From assembly GCA_965246715.1 (NCBI GenBank), contig CBDFFH010000034.1:1-64000 (forward strand): a stretch of 64,000 bases of DNA, written 5' to 3'. The notes beneath the pieces are model-generated. The model was not told where the DNA came from and ran no database searches. It worked only from the letters and a program-made list of their open reading frames with translations. Numbering within the stretch: the stretch's first letter is position 1; each line of letters starts with the position of its first letter. Source of the DNA: Chamaesiphon sp. GTDB lineage: Bacteria; Cyanobacteriota; Cyanobacteriia; Cyanobacteriales; Chamaesiphonaceae. Positions 16,932 to 50,902 of the stretch are shown piece by piece. The position numbers and the translations under genes are program-made.

Positions 16932-17420
16932 TTAATCGATGGGATCGATCCGATAGGCGCGCGGTTTTAATTTACGTTTGAGGATAAAAATCGCACCGAG
17001 CGTCACCAACGAGTAGCCTAACGCACCAGCTGGTTCCGGTACGGCTACTGGGGTCAAAAACCCCCGAATCTCACCACCGGGGAATACCGTGGAATGAATA
17101 TTCACATATGCTCGACCCGACACGATACCGCTAATCAGTGCAGCCTCAGCGCTGGCAATACTCCCCCCATTCGCCGTAATAAAGGCCGGATTGTATGAGG
17201 ATGCTAACCTCAGGTCGAGGGTATTGTTGTAGCTGCCACTGGTTACACCCAGGGGAAAGCCAGCAAACACCGGAGTCGTTGTAGCTACACCAGCAGTCCC
17301 AACACCAGGAATCGCTGTTGCACTATGAATGTGGGCAGTTGTAGTCGGTCCGACTAGTCCGTTGAAGGTTATTTGCACCCCCAAGGTATCCAGCAGATTA
17401 TCGATCGTGACCAAGGCTTG
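16932..17420 (-). pseudogene. 3' portion of a CHRD-domain PEP-CTERM protein, cut off by the intron complex
   Basis: TTAHIH, AYVNIHSTVFPGGEIRG, VPEP + TM + basic tail. No signal peptide; begins exactly at the intron 3' end. Confidence 0.85.
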
Positions 17421-17477
17421 GTTTGAGTCGAGGGCAAGTATTATCTTGCGCCCCTCTCAGTTAGAACTGGACGTGCG
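17421..17477 (-). mobile_element. 3' end (right half of domain V plus domain VI) of an outer group II intron
   Basis: cgcacgtccagttc-taactgagaggggcgcaagataatacttgccctcgactcaaac: DV 3' strand, DVI hairpin and AAC end. Confidence 0.85.
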
Positions 17478-19905
17478 GTAGGGTAGGTAGCCAGCGAGTT
17501 ACCATTACTGGTACTTTTCCAACCACCCCCCTCCAAACTACGCATGACCGTTTCCGTATCACGTAGCTTTCCGGTAATTTTTACGTTTGAAGGCTTCACC
17601 ATCGTAGCGACCATATTGAATTTTCTCGTGGCATTGACGGCAAACTACTAAAGTTTTACGTCTACGTGCCGACATTTTCTTCATCCATTCTGGACGTTCT
17701 TTGCATCCTTGTTGCTTAATATCTGCTAATTTGCGAATATGATGGACTTCAATATTGTCCGTTGCTCCACAAATTTCACATTCTTGGGCTAAAAGGCGTT
17801 GAACGACTTCACTACGTCCGTTCCAGATATGATTTGCCTGATTATCATCAATTTCGACCCACTTGTTCCACTGCAAAGAAACTCCACCAAAATAAGTTTT
17901 CAGAGGTAATTTTCCATCACGTTCCACTGTTACTTGTAGCACCCGATAAGTGCCATCCTTTGTATCAATGGTTGCACGATATCGCTTGTAAATTTTCTGG
18001 CAAGTGGTTTTAAACTTCTTTGCCAAAGTTTTTACGAGGGAAAGCTCTGTAACTCGTTTAAGTAAGGATAGCGTGTGGAGGTTATAAGCCATACGGTAGT
18101 ATTGGACTACTCCTCGATACTCCGCTTGATATTGGCTAACTATGCTGTAGGCATCATCGTTGACCCTTTGTGTCAGGTGTATTGGTTTTCCAGAGCGCAT
18201 GTATTTAAGACAATGGTCTTTAATAACGCTTTTGGGCACCCTTAGCCCCACGCTACCGTTGATACATCTTTGACCACGATGGTCATGTTTATCATCGGCA
18301 TGTAGGATGTGAATTTCGTACCCCAGGAATTTAGCAGCCTCATCCCTTGCATGGCTGATGAGGGTCTTTTCATCACTGAGTTCCAGTTTTAACTCATCAC
18401 GTAAAAACGTGGCGATTTTCTGTTTGATTTCCACAGCTTCAGATTTTGAACCAACTACTCCTAACAAGAAATCATCGGCATACCTTGTGTACCAAAGGCG
18501 ACGAAAGTTTGGGTCATTGGGGTCACGGGACGGAATTGACTGTGCCTGTTGGTTCAGCTTCCGTGCTGCTTCCAGTTTTCCAGCTTTTCGGGCAATTGAT
18601 GCAGCCTTAGTTAAGTCTCTGTACGGAGGGTAAACAATCCTTCTAAGACCTCGTGTGTATGCTGGTATTAGTTCGCATTCGACGTATTTGTCCAGTTTGT
18701 CTAGTACCAAATTGGAAAGTATTGGGCTTACCACTGCACCCTGCGGAACTCCGCTATATGTGGAGTTGTATTTCCAGTTTTCCAAGTAGCCTGCATCAAG
18801 CAAACCCTTAATTAGTCGGATAAAGCGATTGTCGTGGATTTTATCTTGTAGTATTTCCACCAGAATAGTATGGTCTATTCTGTCAAAACACGCACTAATA
18901 TCTCCTTCGATAAACCACTTTGTAGCTCGACCTTTTTGGGTAATTTCTTTCAAGGCTGTGTGACATCCACGCTTTGGTCGGAAACCGTGAGAATGTTCGC
19001 TAAATTGCGGTTCATAGTAAGCTTCTAGTATCGAACGAATTACTTCTTGAAGTAATTTATCAGACCAAGAGGGCATACCAAGGGGTCGTAATTTACCGTT
19101 TTTCTTCGGGATATAGGTACGTCGCGCTGGTGTCCATCTATAACGCTCAGATCTCAGAGCCTCAATGATGGTATTAATTTTCTCCAGGGACATTCCATCT
19201 ACCGTTTCCTTTGTAGCACCGGGTGTCATTGCACCTGTGTTGCTGTTCAGCTTGGCGTAGGCGCGTAAGTACAAATCTGGGTGATATAGCAGTCGATACA
19301 AATCTTCTACTGGCAACCCACGTTGTCCGCGTTCACGTATGATGTTCAGTATCGTTTCGGCTGTTCGCATCTCGCGTACCTCTCGATTTCTGTTTCATCT
19401 TTATTACCTGTTCTACTTCGCCATGTAAACGGCTCTCCCGTTTGCCCTGGTGGGGCGTTACTCCCACGACTACTATTAGAACTCCGTCACCATAGGACTC
19501 GCGTCCCTTAGGCAATCCCATGTTCCGTCACTGATGAACGTATAAAGAACGACTTAGGTTCCTACTCATATCCTTGAATAAGTTCATTACTTATTGCTCA
19601 CTGGTCAGGGTGTACCATTAACGAAAGTTGAATTAATGGCTACCAGTGACATCGGTGTACAAACGTGATACCGAAGGATGTGCAGTTCCACCTCTGGATA
19701 TTGGGGTTCAGGCAGTTTAGCTTTAACCATATCGTTCAGGCGTTGCAGAGCCATAACATACACGTTTTCTGTTATTCTCCGCTTTACGAACATGCTCTTG
19801 TCCCCTTGCCCTTTCGGGTTTAGGTAAGTTGTTCGCCTTGGAGTCAGTTACCCTGAACTCCAGCCAACTGAGTTGGCAATTCAATCAGTGCGTACCACGG
19901 CGCAC
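17478..19905 (-). mobile_element. Intact group II intron (LtrA/IIA-like) inserted in domain V of another intron
   Basis: 5' GTGCGCC at 19905. DV ggaaagctacgtgatacggaaacggtcatgcgtagttt. 3' end CCTACCCTAC at 17478. Confidence 0.92.
17559..19370 (-). CDS. ltrA: Group II intron reverse transcriptase/maturase with HNH endonuclease
   Basis: RPLGMP, HGFRP, GVPQG, YADD, C-terminal CEICG..EVHHIRKL..RKTLVVCRQCH. Confidence 0.95.
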   Translation of the reverse strand: MRTAETILNIIRERGQRGLPVEDLYRLLYHPDLYLRAYAKLNSNTGAMTPGATKETVDGMSLEKINTIIEALRSERYRWTPARRTYIPKKNGKLRPLGMPSWSDKLLQEVIRSILEAYYEPQFSEHSHGFRPKRGCHTALKEITQKGRATKWFIEGDISACFDRIDHTILVEILQDKIHDNRFIRLIKGLLDAGYLENWKYNSTYSGVPQGAVVSPILSNLVLDKLDKYVECELIPAYTRGLRRIVYPPYRDLTKAASIARKAGKLEAARKLNQQAQSIPSRDPNDPNFRRLWYTRYADDFLLGVVGSKSEAVEIKQKIATFLRDELKLELSDEKTLISHARDEAAKFLGYEIHILHADDKHDHRGQRCINGSVGLRVPKSVIKDHCLKYMRSGKPIHLTQRVNDDAYSIVSQYQAEYRGVVQYYRMAYNLHTLSLLKRVTELSLVKTLAKKFKTTCQKIYKRYRATIDTKDGTYRVLQVTVERDGKLPLKTYFGGVSLQWNKWVEIDDNQANHIWNGRSEVVQRLLAQECEICGATDNIEVHHIRKLADIKQQGCKERPEWMKKMSARRRKTLVVCRQCHEKIQYGRYDGEAFKRKNYRKAT

Positions 19906-20758
19906 AGTTTCCCTTCACTACGCTCCTGGTTCACATTTACTTAACAAGCCTTACCACCCTTTAATGGGCTGCTTGCCTTTCTGACTCCCACTTCACCGTG
20001 TATGGCTTGGTGTTGGTGACATTCTCGATGTAAAACTTCAAGATTGGACAGCTTCCAATTGATATGGTTTCCGTCTTTATGATGAATTTCTACAATGTCC
20101 CCAGGATAGAACTTTAATCCACAGGAAGTACAATTGTGTTTTTGTTTGCTCAGAAGATTTACAGTCATCCCGTTATAGTTAGAGTTTTCCCGTTTTGACC
20201 AGTAAATCATGTCTCCATCAAAAGGTGATTTATCCCCTTTTACTTTGATATGACTATTTACTTTCCATGAAATTTTGGGAAATGCTCGTTCAATAACCTT
20301 GTTGGTTTGGTGACGATTGTATCTGCCTTGCTTGCGTATGAATTTCCATACCCATAATCTTAATGACCATAAGTCATGACTACTCATGTCGCAGTATTTG
20401 TGGTAATTTCTCCATCCTCGAATAATAGAACCGCATTTATCGATTCTTTCCTCAAGATTGAATCGACTATCTTTCATCATCTCTTTGACTTTTGCCTTTA
20501 CTTTCTTTGCAGATTTACGACTGGGTGTAGAAATAAATTTGTCATTGGTTCTGACAGCAAATGTCCATCCAAGGAAGTCGAAACTTTCTGTACTTTGTAC
20601 TAATTTGGTTTTTGCTTCTTTTACTTTTAACCCTCTTATTCCTAAGAATCGGTCAATTACTTCTCGCAAGGCTATAGCATCGTCTTGGGGCTTGAGAATA
20701 AACACTACGTCATCTGCATAACGGAATCCGTTTATTGCGTCGATACCTCTTCCACCCC

Positions 20759-22269
20759 CAGGTTAAACGCACTTAAATTTGTTATTACTAAAAACTTTGA
20801 CGATCGAATGAATAAATAGCATCTAGAAATCTTGTAATTACTGCTAGGTAATAGTTAGAGCTAATTAACTATGTTAGAATTTAACAAATTTAATTTAACT
20901 AAAATGAAGCTGAAGCCAAAATATAGTATTATAGAACACTTCGAGAGTGTAGAAGACTACAGGACAGAGCGCGGGAAAAAGCATAAATTAATTGATATCA
21001 TCACCATTACCATTTGTGCTGTAGTATCTGGAGCTGATACATGGATAGATATAGAAATTTATGGTTTGGCGAAGAAGGAATGGCTAGGTAAATTTTTAGA
21101 GTTGCCGCATGGTATTCCATCACATGATACATTTGGAAGGGTATTTTCACGAATTAATCCTGAAGAATTTCAAAAAAGTTTCCTGAGTTGGGTTAAAGGA
21201 ATATCTAAAATAACAGCAGGAGAAATAATTGCACTTGACGGCAAACAATCTCGAAATTCAGGAGATAATACTAATGGACAAGGTGTACTAAATACTGTTA
21301 GTGCATGGGCTGTAACTAATAGATTAGTATTAGGACAGAAAATGGTTGAGGGCAAATCTAATGAAATCACAGCACTTCCTGAATTAATTAAAGTTCTAGA
21401 TTTAGCCGGATGTATAGTTACCATTGATGCAATGGGATGTCAAAGAGAAATAGTAAAAAAAATTGTTGAAAAAGATGCAGATTATGTAATTGCTGTGAAA
21501 AAGAATCAACCAAGTTTATACGACCAAGTAGAAAGGCTATTTAAACAGGCTATTGCAACTGGTGGCGCAGGTTTCAATCTGAGTGATTTCAGGACTAAGG
21601 AGATTAATGGGGGTAGGGAAGAAATCCGTAATTATTTAATGATATCAGATGTTGCCGATCGAATAGATTCATCCCATAACTGGATGAAATTGACTAGTAT
21701 TGCGATGGTTGAATCAGTAAGAACTATTGGGGATAAAACCACCATAGAGACTCGTTATTTTATTAGTAGTTTAGCTAATAATGCCAAGAGAGTCGCCGGA
21801 GCAATTAGAGGTCATTGGGGGATAGAAAATTCACTTCATTGGGTACTTGATGTTTCTTTAAGAGAAGATTATAGTCGAATTAGGAAAGATAATGCGCCAG
21901 CTAATTTTGCAGTATTACGGCACATAGCTATTAACTTAATTAGTCAAAATAAAAGTCGGAAATTAAGTGTGAAAAGCAAGAGATTTCTAGCAGGTATAGA
22001 TGACAAATACTTGGCTGAAATTTTAGAAGGTATTTTATAATTTACGAACTATTGGTTGAAATCAAATTACTTCTATAATATATCGACGATTTAAGTTATT
22101 CCTTCGATCGACTACTTTATATTGCATTAAATTAAATAAATATTGCCTTATACTATACATCAGTTCTAATTGAATTCGTCGTAAATGTATTTAGTTCATA
22201 AATACTGCTTAAGTTGTATGTATTATTGAATTCGATCGCCTCATATCAAGTTTTGATGCGTTTAACCTG
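20759..22269 (+). mobile_element. ISAs1-family insertion sequence
   Basis: TIR caggttaaacgca at both ends; 10-bp target duplication cttccacccc (20749-20758 and 22270-22279). Confidence 0.95.
20895..22040 (+). CDS. ISAs1 transposase (start approximate)
   Basis: GIPSHDTF, IALDGK, KSNEITA, TIDAMGCQ, HWGIENSLHWVLD. Confidence 0.95.
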   Translation, partial: LTKMKLKPKYSIIEHFESVEDYRTERGKKHKLIDIITITICAVVSGADTWIDIEIYGLAKKEWLGKFLELPHGIPSHDTFGRVFSRINPEEFQKSFLSWVKGISKITAGEIIALDGKQSRNSGDNTNGQGVLNTVSAWAVTNRLVLGQKMVEGKSNEITALPELIKVLDLAGCIVTIDAMGCQREIVKKIVEKDADYVIAVKKNQPSLYDQVERLFKQAIATGGAGFNLSDFRTKEINGGREEIRNYLMISDVADRIDSSHNWMKLTSIAMVESVRTIGDKTTIETRYFISSLANNAKRVAGAIRGHWGIENSLHWVLDVSLREDYSRIRKDNAPANFAVLRHIAINLISQNKSRKLSVKSKRFLAGIDDKYLAEILEGIL

Positions 22270-23526
22270 CTTCCACCCCTGATACTTTTACATCTGACTT
22301 GGTGTCCAAGATCTTCAAGACCATGTAGGCTGATATTGGCAAGTAAGGGGCTGATAGTCCCGCCTTGAGGTGTTCCTGACTCTGAGATAGGGAACTCTCC
22401 TCTAACTCCGGCTTTGATAGCTCTGAAGAGTCCGGTTTTTGCTGCTCTTGGTAGTTGAACGCTTCGCATAATGAATTTGTGGTCGATAGCGTTGAAACAC
22501 CGTTCGATGTCCAGTTCCAGGATTCTTTTCTCAATACCTTTTTTTCCAAGGTTGTCGAATATCCCTTTTTGAACATCGTGACATGAAGACAATCTTTCTC
22601 AGCTTTCGCCAAGGGATTATTTTCCATTTATCGCTCGGTTTTAATTCCGTCGTCATAACATGATTTACGCATTGAGAATCTGTCTATGTAAACCGCGCCC
22701 AGTTGTCTTCAAGTCCTTACCTTTCAGATTTTCGAGCGCATCTTACCAATTTCCCCCGCTAAACCTTATTTAAGGGCTTCACTTCTTCTAGGGGCATATC
22801 CTAGATTCTCAGAAGAAGGTATTGGAAACTGTTTTATTCGTTCCTCAGTTTAGTTATTTTGCGGTTTTAGGTTCCTTCAATTCACCCACCATTTCCCAGG
22901 ATTACAGATGTTAACCAGAAACTCTGTGGGTATATTCATCCTTATCGGATTATTTTGTGTGATTATCTAATCTTTCGATTAGGGGGCCTTGGATGCTTTT
23001 TTAGAAGGTTCAGACTTAACTTAACCGTTACACGCTTACCTAACGGGTATCAGCCTGTCATTTGACTTTATGGCTTCGTTATTCCCGTCCTATTCCCAGC
23101 TTCATTTTCAGAGTTTTATTCTCTGTCCATGTGGGTAGGTCTGGCATCACTCCATCCCTAGAGGGTAGGACTTGCTTACTTCGTATTTTCGGCTCACCTA
23201 CACTAAACTGAAGTTTTCCTTACTTTCTTTAAAGTTTCAATTGAAACTAAGGCGGTGTAAGGAATCTTATCCCCATAACTAGTGTTATGTTTCAAAGAAA
23301 CGAGCCGCACCTGATTCCGCCCTGTTCCCAGCTTCACTCTCACGAATTCCGAGTCGTGTCGGTGTGGGCAGGTAAGGATTCACTCTTGAGTTTAGAGGGA
23401 GGGACTTGCACCCTCATCAATCGGACAGTTCAAGCCTTAGAGTGCTACATGTCTGGTAGCAAGCTTGGAAGTACTATGTACGGACTTTCACCGTGATTCA
23501 TACTTCAACGAATCGCACTATTCTAA

Positions 23527-25756: not shown

Positions 25757-27406
25757 ATGGCTGAAATCGTGCAATCTAGCTCGCGTCGATTGGAAATTCT
25801 CGATGTGTTGCTGCGGTATGGCTGGGACTACATGCGACAGCTTCTGACGATCGGGCGCGCCGACAAGCCAGAAGTCCCGCCACCAGACATTCTCCGGAAT
25901 ATTCTCACCGACTTGGGGCCAGTCTATGTCAAATTGGGGCAACTTTTGAGTACGCGTCCCGATCTCCTTCCACCAGAATATATCGATGCACTCAGTTCGC
26001 TGCAATCAAATGTACCCGTAGTTCCACCTAGCGAGATTGCCGAATTTATTCACATCCAATTACCCCAGCCAGCGGAGGAAATCTTCTCCCAGATCGATTA
26101 TCAAGCGATCGCGGCAGGATCGATCGCCCAAACCCATCGTGCAACTCTAAAAGATGGACAGTTAGTAGCGATCAAAATCCAACGTCCTGGCATCGATGTG
26201 ACGGTAGCTAGGGATATCGCCCTCCTCAAAAAAACTGCCGAACTAGTCTCTGGAACTGACTTTGGCAAGCAATACGATATCGTCTCGCTCGCCGAAGAAT
26301 TTAGCACCGCGCTCAAGGCGGAATTAGATTTTACGCAAGAAGCCAACTATACCGAACAACTTCGCAGTAATCTTGCCAAGAGTAGCTGGTTCGATCCCAA
26401 CCGCATCGTCGTACCGAGAATTCACCGTCATTTGACGACACCAAAAGTCCTGGTGATGGAGTGGCTGGATGGGGTGCCGATTCTGACAGCTCAGATGGGG
26501 GGTAAGGAATATAATGGTGATGTCGATGCCGAAAAGCGATCGCTGACGACATTAATATTTCGCGCATTTTTTCAGCAATATTTAGTGGATGGTTTTTTTC
26601 ATGCCGATCCGCATCCAGGCAATTTATTTTATCTCAACGATGGTCGGCTCGCAATTCTCGATTGTGGCATGATGGGGCGGCTCGATCCACGTACCCAGAC
26701 GGTACTCATCGAAATGGTGTTAGCAATTATCGATCTCGATGCTCAAAGATGCAGCCAGCTAACGTTGCAATTAGCCGATGCCACTCAACCAGTGGATCTG
26801 TTCCAATTGGAACGAGATTATGAGCGATTGCTACGGAAATATGGCAATTTGAGTCTAAATAATATTAATGCTAGTCAAGCATTTTATGAGATTTTACAAG
26901 CGGCGCGGAAAAATTATCTGCGGTGGCCAAGCAATATTGGATTGTTTGCAAAATCTTTAGCTAACTTAGAAGGTGCTGGGCGACAGTTTTATCCAGCGGT
27001 AAACGTGATAACCGAGGTGAAACCGCTGATGACAGATATGTTTCAGCGTCAATTATTAGGTGATAATCCATTACAATCGGTGCTAAGAACTGCCTTAGAG
27101 TTTAAGAATCTATCGTTAGAATCGCCTCGGCAATTTAGCTTTCTACTCAATCGTTTGAGTTCGGAAACATTACGATTAAATTTAACGATTCAAGATTTAG
27201 ATCTACTGCGGTTGAGTTTGGATGACGCTGCCAATCGTCGATCGTTTAGTACGTTAGTAGGCTCGTTAGCGATCTCAGCCGCGATTATTTCGACGGCGGC
27301 ACGCACGCCAGAGTTGCAGTTACTCAGTAATATTTTATTTGGGGTGGCAAGTTTGCTGGGGTTATGGCTGATTTGGAAAATTTTGCGGTCGGGAAAATTG
27401 AAATAA
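25757..27406 (+). CDS. ABC1/UbiB-family atypical kinase
   Basis: LGPVYVKLGQ, AAGSIAQ, VAIKIQRP, FFHADPHPGN, LDCGMMG. Confidence 0.92.
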   Translation: MAEIVQSSSRRLEILDVLLRYGWDYMRQLLTIGRADKPEVPPPDILRNILTDLGPVYVKLGQLLSTRPDLLPPEYIDALSSLQSNVPVVPPSEIAEFIHIQLPQPAEEIFSQIDYQAIAAGSIAQTHRATLKDGQLVAIKIQRPGIDVTVARDIALLKKTAELVSGTDFGKQYDIVSLAEEFSTALKAELDFTQEANYTEQLRSNLAKSSWFDPNRIVVPRIHRHLTTPKVLVMEWLDGVPILTAQMGGKEYNGDVDAEKRSLTTLIFRAFFQQYLVDGFFHADPHPGNLFYLNDGRLAILDCGMMGRLDPRTQTVLIEMVLAIIDLDAQRCSQLTLQLADATQPVDLFQLERDYERLLRKYGNLSLNNINASQAFYEILQAARKNYLRWPSNIGLFAKSLANLEGAGRQFYPAVNVITEVKPLMTDMFQRQLLGDNPLQSVLRTALEFKNLSLESPRQFSFLLNRLSSETLRLNLTIQDLDLLRLSLDDAANRRSFSTLVGSLAISAAIISTAARTPELQLLSNILFGVASLLGLWLIWKILRSGKLK

Positions 27407-27451
27407 CTGTAACGTGAGTTAACCTAACTCACGTTACAGTTATTTCAATTT
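27395..27451. repeat. Perfect 27-bp inverted repeat with a 3-nt loop (possible bidirectional terminator)
   Basis: aaattgaaataactgtaacgtgagtta-acc-taactcacgttacagttatttcaattt, between convergent genes. Confidence 0.85.
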
Positions 27452-27565
27452 GAGGGGTGAATTACGATTCACCCTTCAAACTATTCGATACTTGACGTTG
27501 CTAAATTGTGGTATAAAACACTTTCTGAATTCAGCAACGTCTGATATTTAATCTAGCCGATCGAG

Positions 27566-37301: not shown

Positions 37302-37355
37302 TGCAAAGTCCGCCTTCGCGGACTAATTATCTAGTCCGCGAAGGCGGACTTTGCA
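37302..37355. repeat. REP-like doublet, 24-bp perfect inverted repeat
   Basis: tgcaaagtccgccttcgcggacta / tagtccgcgaaggcggactttgca; related copy at about 62205-62306. Confidence 0.85.
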
Positions 37356-49414: not shown

Positions 49415-50902
49415 CAGGGTGAACGCACTTAAATTTCCTACTATTTAAAATCCTCGCAAATCAGTTGCAGATTTGAATTACGAAAAGTATGAAAGCTTTA
49501 ATGGTAAACAAGTATAGCCAGTTAATTATGTTATATTTATTGGAAATTCAGATCGCGTCAAATGAAGCTAAAGCCAAGGCATAGTATCGCAGAACACTTT
49601 GGTGACATAAAAGACATTAGAATTGAACGGGGGAAAAAACACAAACTAATCGATATTATCACGATCTCGATTTGTGCAGTAGTATGTGGAGCAGATGGAT
49701 GGGAAGACATAGAGCTGTATGGCATCACCAGAAAAAAATGGCTGGAGGAATTTCTAGAATTACCGAATGGGATACCATCTCACGATACATTTGCACGGGT
49801 ATTTTCACAAATTAATCCTGAAGAATTCAATAAATCTTTCCTGCATTGGATTAAAGGAATAAGTAAAATAACAGCAGGAGAGATAATCGCATTTGATGGA
49901 AAACAATCTCGAAATTCAAGAGACGAAAAAAATGGTAAAGGAGTAATTAATACGGTCAGTGCTTGGGCAGCAAGTAATAGATTAGTATTAGGACAAACAA
50001 AAGTCGAGAGTAAATCAAATGAAATTACTGCATTGCCTGAGTTGATTAATGCCTTAGATCTAGCTGGATGTATAGTGACAATTGATGCAATGGGATGTCA
50101 GCGAGAAATAGTCAAGAAAATTGTCAAAAAAGAAGCAGATTATGTAATTGCTGTCAAAAAGAATCAACCAAGTTTATATGAAAGGGTAGAACAGCTATTC
50201 AAACAGGCGATTAAAACTCGTGGTGAAAGTCTGAAAACGCATAGCTTCAGCAGTAGAGAGATGAATAGAGGTAGAGAGGAAACTCGTAATTACCTAATGA
50301 TATCAGACATTGCAACATCAATAGATCCATTGCTAAAATGGCAAAATCTGACTAGTATTTGCATGGTAGAATCAGTTCGAGTTGTCAATGAAAAAACCAG
50401 CGTAGAAGCTCGTTATTTCATCAGTAGCTTAGAAGATAATGTTGAAAAACTAGCAGAAGCAATCAGAGGTCATTGGTCGATAGAAAATTCACTCCATTGG
50501 GTACTTGATGTTATTTTCAAAGAAGACATTAGTCGAATTAGAAAAGATAATGCTCCAGCTAATTTTGCTGTTTTAAGACATATAGCAGTTAATATAATGA
50601 GTCAGAACAAGAGTCGAAAACTAAGTGTTAGGAAGAAGCGATTTCTTGCGAGCCTTGATGAAGAATATTCGCGCGAACTTCTAGAGGCTATTTTAGCCTA
50701 AATTTAACTAACCCCAGAGTATGAATTTGGCTAAATATCTTTAGCCGCACTTTTGCCGGACTAAATTGAGTTAATTTAACCTCGTCTTTGGTTTCGATTT
50801 TATTGATATTGTCGTAATTGTAGTTAAGCAATCGAATATCATTAATCGCCTATTTTAGTGGCTCTCGATCGAAATAAATCCTGTTTTGATGCGTTCACCC
50901 TG
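49415..50902 (+). mobile_element. ISAs1-family insertion sequence (distinct from 20759-22269)
   Basis: TIR cagggtgaacgca; 10-bp TSD ctagagatgt (49405-49414 and 50903-50912). Confidence 0.95.
49562..50701 (+). CDS. ISAs1 transposase
   Basis: GIPSHDTF, KSNEITA, TIDAMGCQ, HWSIENSLHWVLD. Confidence 0.95.
   Translation: MKLKPRHSIAEHFGDIKDIRIERGKKHKLIDIITISICAVVCGADGWEDIELYGITRKKWLEEFLELPNGIPSHDTFARVFSQINPEEFNKSFLHWIKGISKITAGEIIAFDGKQSRNSRDEKNGKGVINTVSAWAASNRLVLGQTKVESKSNEITALPELINALDLAGCIVTIDAMGCQREIVKKIVKKEADYVIAVKKNQPSLYERVEQLFKQAIKTRGESLKTHSFSSREMNRGREETRNYLMISDIATSIDPLLKWQNLTSICMVESVRVVNEKTSVEARYFISSLEDNVEKLAEAIRGHWSIENSLHWVLDVIFKEDISRIRKDNAPANFAVLRHIAVNIMSQNKSRKLSVRKKRFLASLDEEYSRELLEAILA

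Follow-up and report, generated by a model that had tools for sequence, protein, structure and literature searches.

The first twintron to be described, in the psbF gene of the Euglena gracilis chloroplast, carries its inner intron in domain V of the outer one (review PMC8393795). In the bacterial twintrons of Thermosynechococcus (TeI3 in TeI4; PMC2882425) and Trichodesmium (T.e.I7/I8; PMC4649490) the inner introns lie elsewhere, and sequential splicing has been shown for the latter (PMC4649490). The introns M.a.I5, UA.I3, P.l.I2 and B.th.I3 home into the RYADD codons of other reverse transcriptase (RT) genes (PMC2504315), and the nested intron arrays of Methanosarcina are described as the outcome of an insertion-and-deletion cycle, trimmed by homologous recombination between copies (PMC4424553). 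Here we analyse a group II intron that interrupts the catalytic hairpin, domain V (D5), of other group II introns. It was found in a 64,000-nucleotide (nt) stretch of a Chamaesiphon sp. contig (CBDFFH010000034.1, positions 1 to 64,000), the whole of which is referred to as the window. An initial annotation, made from the sequence alone, had proposed that the intron is programmed for this target and had described known twintrons as mostly insertions into intron open reading frames (ORFs) or other domains, without mention of psbF.

The intron (inner intron; Table 1) is inserted two bases 3' of the GAAA tetraloop of a D5. A D5 5' arm, ending in GAAACT, directly precedes it, and a D5 3' arm together with domain VI (D6), which ends at 17421, follows. 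The initial annotation had placed it between the left and right arms of a D5; the position after GAAA stands, but the two arms are not partners, and only 5/8 lower-stem pairs form when they are rejoined in silico, as is also the case for a second copy on contig C2. The source genome, a 6.1-Mb draft assembly of 55 contigs in which the window contig is C34, contains five full copies (the window and four others, with 99.8-100% identity) plus one 3' fragment. Since all five full copies split a D5 two bases past the tetraloop, with three different types of 5' flank, the position is not due to chance. The near-identity of the copies suggests that the intron was mobile recently. Its host on contig C20 is an ORF-less intron, and in silico rejoining restored 8/8 lower-stem pairs at C43, 8/8 at C39 and 7/8 at C20. 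When the whole genome was searched with Rfam family RF00029, ten D5/D6 matches were obtained, namely the five copies' own D5 and five uninterrupted others, and none of the five split host D5s was detected. Because split D5s are missed by D5-based searches, invaded hosts are likely undercounted; pipelines state that twintrons are dropped. The element is rare, given that a long match to its 5' region was present in only 1/400 genomes of the phylum and matches near 98-99% identity in 2/60 relatives. Contigs of runs X1 and X4 carry an ORF-less derivative of it (joint 17575-19354), about 8% divergent and at a contig depth far above that of the ORF-bearing form, and a further ORF-less derivative (L083:502-954) is followed by a D5 3' arm.

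The intactness of this LtrA-type intron, as initially annotated, is borne out by its ends, its D5/D6 and its ORF. It begins with GUGCG at 19905 and ends with AC at 17478, matching the GUGYG and AY consensus ends, and the 5' junction is fixed by an empty host allele in run X2. D5 and D6 matched RF00029 with 47 bits (cut-off 40), gave a fold z of -3.8 and contain the AGC triad and a D6 with a bulged A. The intact ORF lies in domain IV, as in group II retroelements, and encodes a 603-aa protein with the Pfam domains RVT_1, Intron_maturas2 and AI2M-like_HNH, whose top PDB match was LtrA (E 5e-115, residues 10-584); TIGR04416 reached 269.7 bits, under its cut-off of 300. The delta position is located 5' of exon-binding site 1 (EBS1) and pairs with exon +1, and EBS2 occupies a terminal loop, as in subgroup IIA. 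A terminal-loop EBS2 is described as a IIA trait (PMC8643678) and delta-delta' pairing as a feature of class A introns (PMC2504315). By its exon-binding arrangement, PDB match and Pfam families, the inner intron is assigned to the LtrA-like group IIA introns, presumably of the ML class; the Rfam families for domains I-IV matched neither it nor its hosts in this genome.

Relatives were collected by protein-based scans, which provided 79 loci from genomes (best 80 of 560) and 79 from metagenomes (best 80 of 594). In a tree of the intron-encoded proteins, the D5-inserted introns formed one clade (24/80 rows, SH-aLRT 98), which was recovered with 36/159 rows in a larger tree (support 0.99) and with a support of 94 in a reduced tree. 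The clade junctions were classified by eye (L009/L010 and L031/L126 are near-duplicates): 29 of the 36 rows were inserted at the same D5 position, three lay in protein genes, and four were uninformative (L014 was ambiguous; L007, L012 and L095 were without a junction). Tabulating the flanks of homologues, the check suggested at the outset, thus gave the D5 position for 5/5 full genome copies and 29/36 clade rows, and the proposal of an intron programmed to enter the D5 of other group II introns is strongly supported in this genome and across the clade. As an objective check of the by-eye calls, a D5 weight matrix was trained on 43 non-clade D5s and applied with a threshold of 8 bits. At least 8 bits were reached by 19/27 clade 5' flanks versus 0/83 outside the clade, and by 22/28 clade 3' flanks versus 1/77 outside; the matrix miscounts L029 and overlooks unusual D5s, the 5' arm in the window among them. 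According to their records, the D5-inserted members come from Cyanobacteriota, Deinococcota, Bacteroidota, Planctomycetota, Chloroflexota and Acidobacteriota. In five further multi-copy genomes, every copy lay in a D5 (G011 2/2, G451 4/4, G449 3/3, G457 2/2, G453 2/2). The 5' end of the inner intron had 0 matches in viral contigs, and a protein search of viral contigs yielded a single clade-type member, L179, which is followed by a D5 3' arm.

The invaded introns are diverse. Those with a full-length RT ORF include forms both with and without an HNH match, pairwise identity among the host proteins compared is mostly 26-36%, and the host at L098 belongs to the invader's own wider family. Of 19 other loci that had both flanks, 18 regained a D5 on in silico joining, with 7/8 or 8/8 pairs in the lower stem. 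The EBS bases follow the sequence of the host D5: the intron of G011 carries CCGCA and pairs 11/11 with its site, and in L009 an EBS1 of CGUCUC faces GAGACG in the target. Passive carriage of a few old D5 insertions, spread by duplication or recombination of their hosts with no lasting D5 specificity, would account for the composite that C34 and C2 have in common (99% identity over 4.5 kb) and for the identical 5' flanks among the three G449 copies and between the two G011 copies. It is largely refuted by hosts that are far apart, the ORF-less one on C20 included, by identical invader copies in different hosts of a single genome and by EBS sequences that track the host D5, and we regard it as highly improbable.

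For the hosts of L009, L010, L015, L016 and L126, which are of a Planctomycete type, no RT ORF was found before the D5, and motifs in common were found after D6; no Rfam families matched the hosts of L009, L015, L016 and L126. Circularly permuted group II ribozymes have been described with D5-D6 ahead of domain I and without an ORF (PMC8637638), and these five hosts may, from their layout, be of that kind.

Exon-binding sites were assigned by covariation, using an alignment of the 5' RNA of 61 introns (L010, L051 and L053 were excluded as duplicates) in which every column was tested against every exon position. Positions 19628-19623 covaried with exon -1 to -6 (EBS1; z 6.9-8.2), positions 19685-19681 with exon -8 to -12 (EBS2; z 6.2-10.1), and the delta bases gave z 5.6 and 6.2 (53 introns). 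Pairing was also compared with shuffled exons (2000 shuffles) in 43 non-clade introns with unrelated targets, where the EBS1 columns were paired to 0.80 versus 0.42 in shuffles and the EBS2 columns to 0.89 versus 0.42, with 0/2000 shuffles as high in either case. In the fold, ACUUUC is held in the loop of hairpin 19614-19640; covariation, shuffles and fold therefore agree with the initial assignment of this loop to EBS1, pairing 5/6 with GAAACT. The same annotation had named a UCAC loop (19665-19668) as a second pairing loop. This candidate was rejected, as it pairs like shuffled sequence (0.37 versus 0.36 in the 43 relatives, 832/2000 shuffles as good) and shows no covariation with the exon; instead, columns 19663-19667 covary inside the intron with 19761-19765 (z 4.8-6.3), a pairing that we take to be alpha-alpha'. 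Folding domain I thus confirmed EBS1 in a hairpin loop and located EBS2 in another loop than the one proposed. The EBS2 sequence CUGCA complements the TGC(A/G)G found 5' of the tetraloop in typical D5s.

Taken together, these data make it very likely, to our mind, that an LtrA-like IIA lineage sits two bases past the D5 tetraloop and arrives there by ordinary DNA retrohoming via EBS1, EBS2 and delta; its D5 occupancy is likely explained by target-reading loops that match the conserved D5 hairpin. Several observations weigh against this. Three clade members, L008, L023 and L029, lie in protein genes rather than in a D5 and group together in the 80-row tree, and a plasmid match, H1 (L172), is likewise in a protein gene. 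As both L008 and H1 are inserted in an HU gene, the lineage is able to leave D5. The L029 site is presumably an IS5-like transposase and the L023 site a CHAP-like gene, both judged from motifs; the sites of L008 and L029 still resemble D5 sequence. Pairing at the window site is imperfect (EBS1 5/6, EBS2 4/5, delta 1/2), and, although all five occupied sites score 10/13 and the five empty D5 types 4-9/13, one empty D5 comes near the occupied sites with 9/13. Finally, the last histidine of the endonuclease motif (17559-17650) is replaced by Q here and in 18/33 clade rows versus 6/106 outside the clade, so it is unsure whether the protein is active as an endonuclease.

Base pairing as the sole source of specificity was ruled out, given that 625 sites of the genome that have GAAA at -6 to -3 reach at least 10/13 pairs and hence score equally well. 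The protein is therefore likely to add specificity through contacts upstream of the paired region.

The changed endonuclease motif in many members would also fit another route of entry, in which the ribonucleoprotein (RNP) reverse-splices into the host intron RNA, followed by reverse transcription and recombination; so would the nature of the target, a structured RNA that is itself abundant. Both intron-binding sites (IBS1 and IBS2), however, lie in the D5 helix and are paired in the folded RNA, and the conserved EBS2 pairing has been linked to the invasion of DNA, several introns being able to splice in vitro without it (PMC8643678). An RNA route is accordingly considered improbable, and entry into DNA is preferred.

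Among non-clade relatives, L028, L067, L077, L124, L145 and L154 use a second D5 site, within the GTTC that ends the 3' arm. Its users do not form one clade, and on the tree this second target may have arisen more than once. Other branches also have fixed targets (L049-L052, L058 and L061; L040 and L109; L044), these being one transposase motif, YADD codons of RT genes and an apparent tRNA gene end.

The D5 of the inner intron itself is 35 nt long and carries an extra base in its 5' arm. To survey this trait, 26 clade D5s were extracted with a pairing check, which left out several introns whose loops have five bases or whose loci lack a D5. The 35-nt form with the extra 5'-arm base was present in 25/26 clade D5s versus 5/76 non-clade relatives, and among viral contigs in 1/11 distinct D5s, that one belonging to the clade-type member. 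The extra base places IBS2 one base out of register: across 18 introns, mean EBS2 pairing was 1.2/5 with the own D5, 3.0/5 with 63 foreign D5s and 3.3/5 with the real targets. The sole clade exception, L015 (34-nt D5), has an EBS1 that pairs only 3/6 with its own loop. The chances that the extra base is an adaptive device for self-avoidance are, in our estimate, about even. The competing explanation, that D5 targeting is real while the 35-nt D5 is neutral or purely catalytic and self-insertion is limited otherwise (protein contacts, lethality of nested copies), is credible but somewhat less probable than not. It draws on the probable single origin of the 35-nt D5 in the lineage, which means that 25/26 does not stand for 25 independent events, on the five non-clade relatives that also have it, on the extra base in one unrelated empty D5 at C17, and on the absence of the trait from L015. 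Furthermore, the own D5 was outscored by only a minority of the foreign D5s in 4/18 introns (L005, L015, L101, L122). Set against neutrality are the loss of EBS2 pairing through the extra base, the weak EBS1 pairing of L015, the one clade member with a 34-nt D5, with its own loop, and the finding of no clade-type D5 among the invaded hosts examined.

Table 1. Features of the composite intron locus and its surroundings (window positions).
Feature	Position	Strand	Remarks
CHRD / PEP-CTERM-type gene, 3' part	16932..17420	-	Pfam CHRD; 5' part precedes composite on contig C2
D5 3' arm + D6 of type-B intron	17421..17477	-	not partner of the 5' arm; resembles intact D5/D6 at C9
D5-targeting group IIA intron (inner)	17478..19905	-	2,428 nt; ends read from sequence
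Own D5 of inner intron	17535..17569	-	35 nt, one extra base on 5' arm (fold)
Intron-encoded protein, RT (YADD) + maturase + HNH-type endonuclease domain	17559..19370	-	603 aa, intact ORF
EBS1 (ACUUUC)	19623..19628	-	pairs with exon -1 to -6; hairpin loop in fold
Delta bases	19629..19630	-	exon partners +1 and +2; layout of subgroup IIA
Alpha-prime loop	19663..19667	-	covaries with alpha at 19761-19765
EBS2 (CUGCA)	19681..19685	-	in terminal loop (hairpin 19674-19694); exon partners -8 to -12
Host intron A, D5 5' arm + tetraloop	19906..19925	-	holds IBS1 (19906-19911) and IBS2 (19913-19917)
Host intron A, body	19926..23310	-	RT ORF broken (remnants 19941-20705, 22209-22592), its N-terminal RT part lost by deletion
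ISAs1-family insertion sequence in host A ORF	20759..22269	+	transposase 20871-22040; NCBIfam transpos_ISAs1
Outer intron (type B), 5' part of domain I	23311..23518	-	GUGCG start at 23518; host A inserted in it

At the locus in the window, the two D5 halves are assigned to different introns, A and B, on the basis of their matches elsewhere. The 3' arm that matches the 5' arm of host A is present at C43, at C39 and in a contig of run X2, in which host A runs directly into the C43-type 3' arm; this contig represents the empty allele, and no target duplication is evident. Uninterrupted type-B D5/D6 were found in runs X1 and X4. Host A starts at 23310 inside domain I of the type-B intron, the insertion (23310-23311; C2:24121) falling on a conserved spot of which uninterrupted versions exist on C43 and C9. 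Its ORF is further interrupted by an ISAs1 element with a 13-nt terminal inverted repeat, which is absent from the C2 copy (empty site). About 13 near-identical copies of this element occur in the genome, along with a second ISAs1 family, 76% identical and present in about 20 copies, one of them at 49560-50695 of the window. A single intact host is ruled out by the 5/8 pairs, the X2 empty allele, the uninterrupted B-type D5 and the broken ORF. The inner intron does lie within another intron, as in a functional twintron, but its removal would not restore an intact outer one: with arms from two introns and a broken ORF, splicing would leave D5 mispaired and the host inactive. The initial statement that host splicing depends on prior removal of the inner intron consequently fails here, while sequential splicing is plausible at loci with intact hosts (C20, C43, L003, L011 and L022).

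The composites on C34 and C2 have their outer exons reciprocally swapped: the halves of the CHRD gene, the 5' part on C2 and the 3' part in the window, give a continuous reading frame when joined in silico, and in run X4 the gene is without an intron. The simplest history consistent with these sequences would be that invader copies in the D5 of A and in the D5 of B recombined, deleting the DNA between them, and that the resulting composites later exchanged their exons. A mis-join in the assembly across the 4.5-kb repeat, to which the hybrid state is open and which counts against this history, is thought to be rather unlikely, even though the assembly is a 55-contig draft, the C2 copy has small indels and the swap is reciprocal. 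The ISAs1 element is in one copy only, and C34 and C2 both join the host-A 5' arm to the type-B 3' arm, so that undoing the swap would still leave two hybrids; a mis-join could explain the exon exchange but not the hybrid D5. Recombination between invader copies thus remains the preferred history. Elsewhere in the genome, introns of other families begin at or just past a D5 (C39:118581, C43:36507, C43:38797, C32:34538, C9:158840), and on C43 they build nested arrays with as many as four or five members.

A life cycle can be proposed on these grounds. The inner intron would be transcribed within its host intron, splice and make its protein, after which the RNP would recognise its DNA target, a D5, through 13 base pairs together with protein contacts further upstream, reverse-splice into it and be copied. 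The host would be inactive until the invader splices, and it would be restored only where both D5 arms match. The invader's own 35-nt D5, by shifting IBS2 one base, would spare it from insertion into itself. Where identical copies reside in nested hosts, recombination between them would generate hybrids such as the one with an A 5' arm and a B 3' arm, whose exons were exchanged with C2. The full reading, of a phylum-hopping hyperparasite that uses D5 as its homing site, silences its hosts until it has spliced, is self-immune by the extra D5 base and covers protein-coding, ORF-less and circularly permuted hosts alike, is put forward tentatively, its joint probability falling just short of even.

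D5 is the one element kept by all group II introns, and an intron aimed at it therefore has a landing site in any intron-bearing genome, at little cost to the cell. Such ready landing sites fit the scattered presence of the lineage in six phyla. A D5-targeting lineage would act as a natural control on intron spread, and it would be a source of intron hybrids, since identical copies in a shared D5 position allow the 5' body of one intron to be recombined with the D5/D6 tail of an unrelated one, as at the present locus.

Two further features of the window were recorded. Between two convergent genes, about 60 bases (27392-27453) form an almost perfect inverted repeat, which gave spurious miRNA matches. 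At 37302-37355, a short palindromic repeat is present in two inverted copies, with a weak match to CRISPR-DR28 (E 0.18); it is probably a dispersed repeat.

In the part of the literature that was searched, neither a bacterial lineage with D5 as its target nor self-avoidance via D5 length was found to be described. Euglena psbF resembles the present case in that a group II intron lies inside domain V of another; it is described as one organellar locus, whereas here an RT-encoding bacterial lineage occupies a fixed D5 position in many unrelated hosts and has EBS loops that match D5. The Thermosynechococcus and Trichodesmium elements are, like the inner intron, bacterial twintrons with identical inner copies in diverged hosts, but their inner introns are reported to interrupt domain I or the beginning of the host ORF, within a single host family, as opposed to the D5 of many classes. 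Nesting followed by recombination between copies, as proposed for the history of this locus, has a counterpart in the Methanosarcina arrays (PMC4424553). Ll.LtrB with LtrA (Lactococcus lactis, IIA) has the same domain order, a terminal-loop EBS2 and delta beside EBS1; it is reported to home into a relaxase gene, whereas D5 is the target of the present lineage, whose own D5 measures 35 nt. The RYADD-targeting introns, too, form a lineage that specialises in a motif conserved among other retroelements. Membership of the inner intron in that lineage was rejected because of its D5 target, its IIA-type exon binding and its HNH-type domain: the RYADD lineage is described with a B-like RNA, no endonuclease and a protein gene as its target, whereas the present one is IIA and LtrA-like and hits the ribozyme's catalytic hairpin, so that ORF-less hosts are targets as well. 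Twintrons in general, one D5 twintron (psbF) and the RYADD-targeting lineage were already known.

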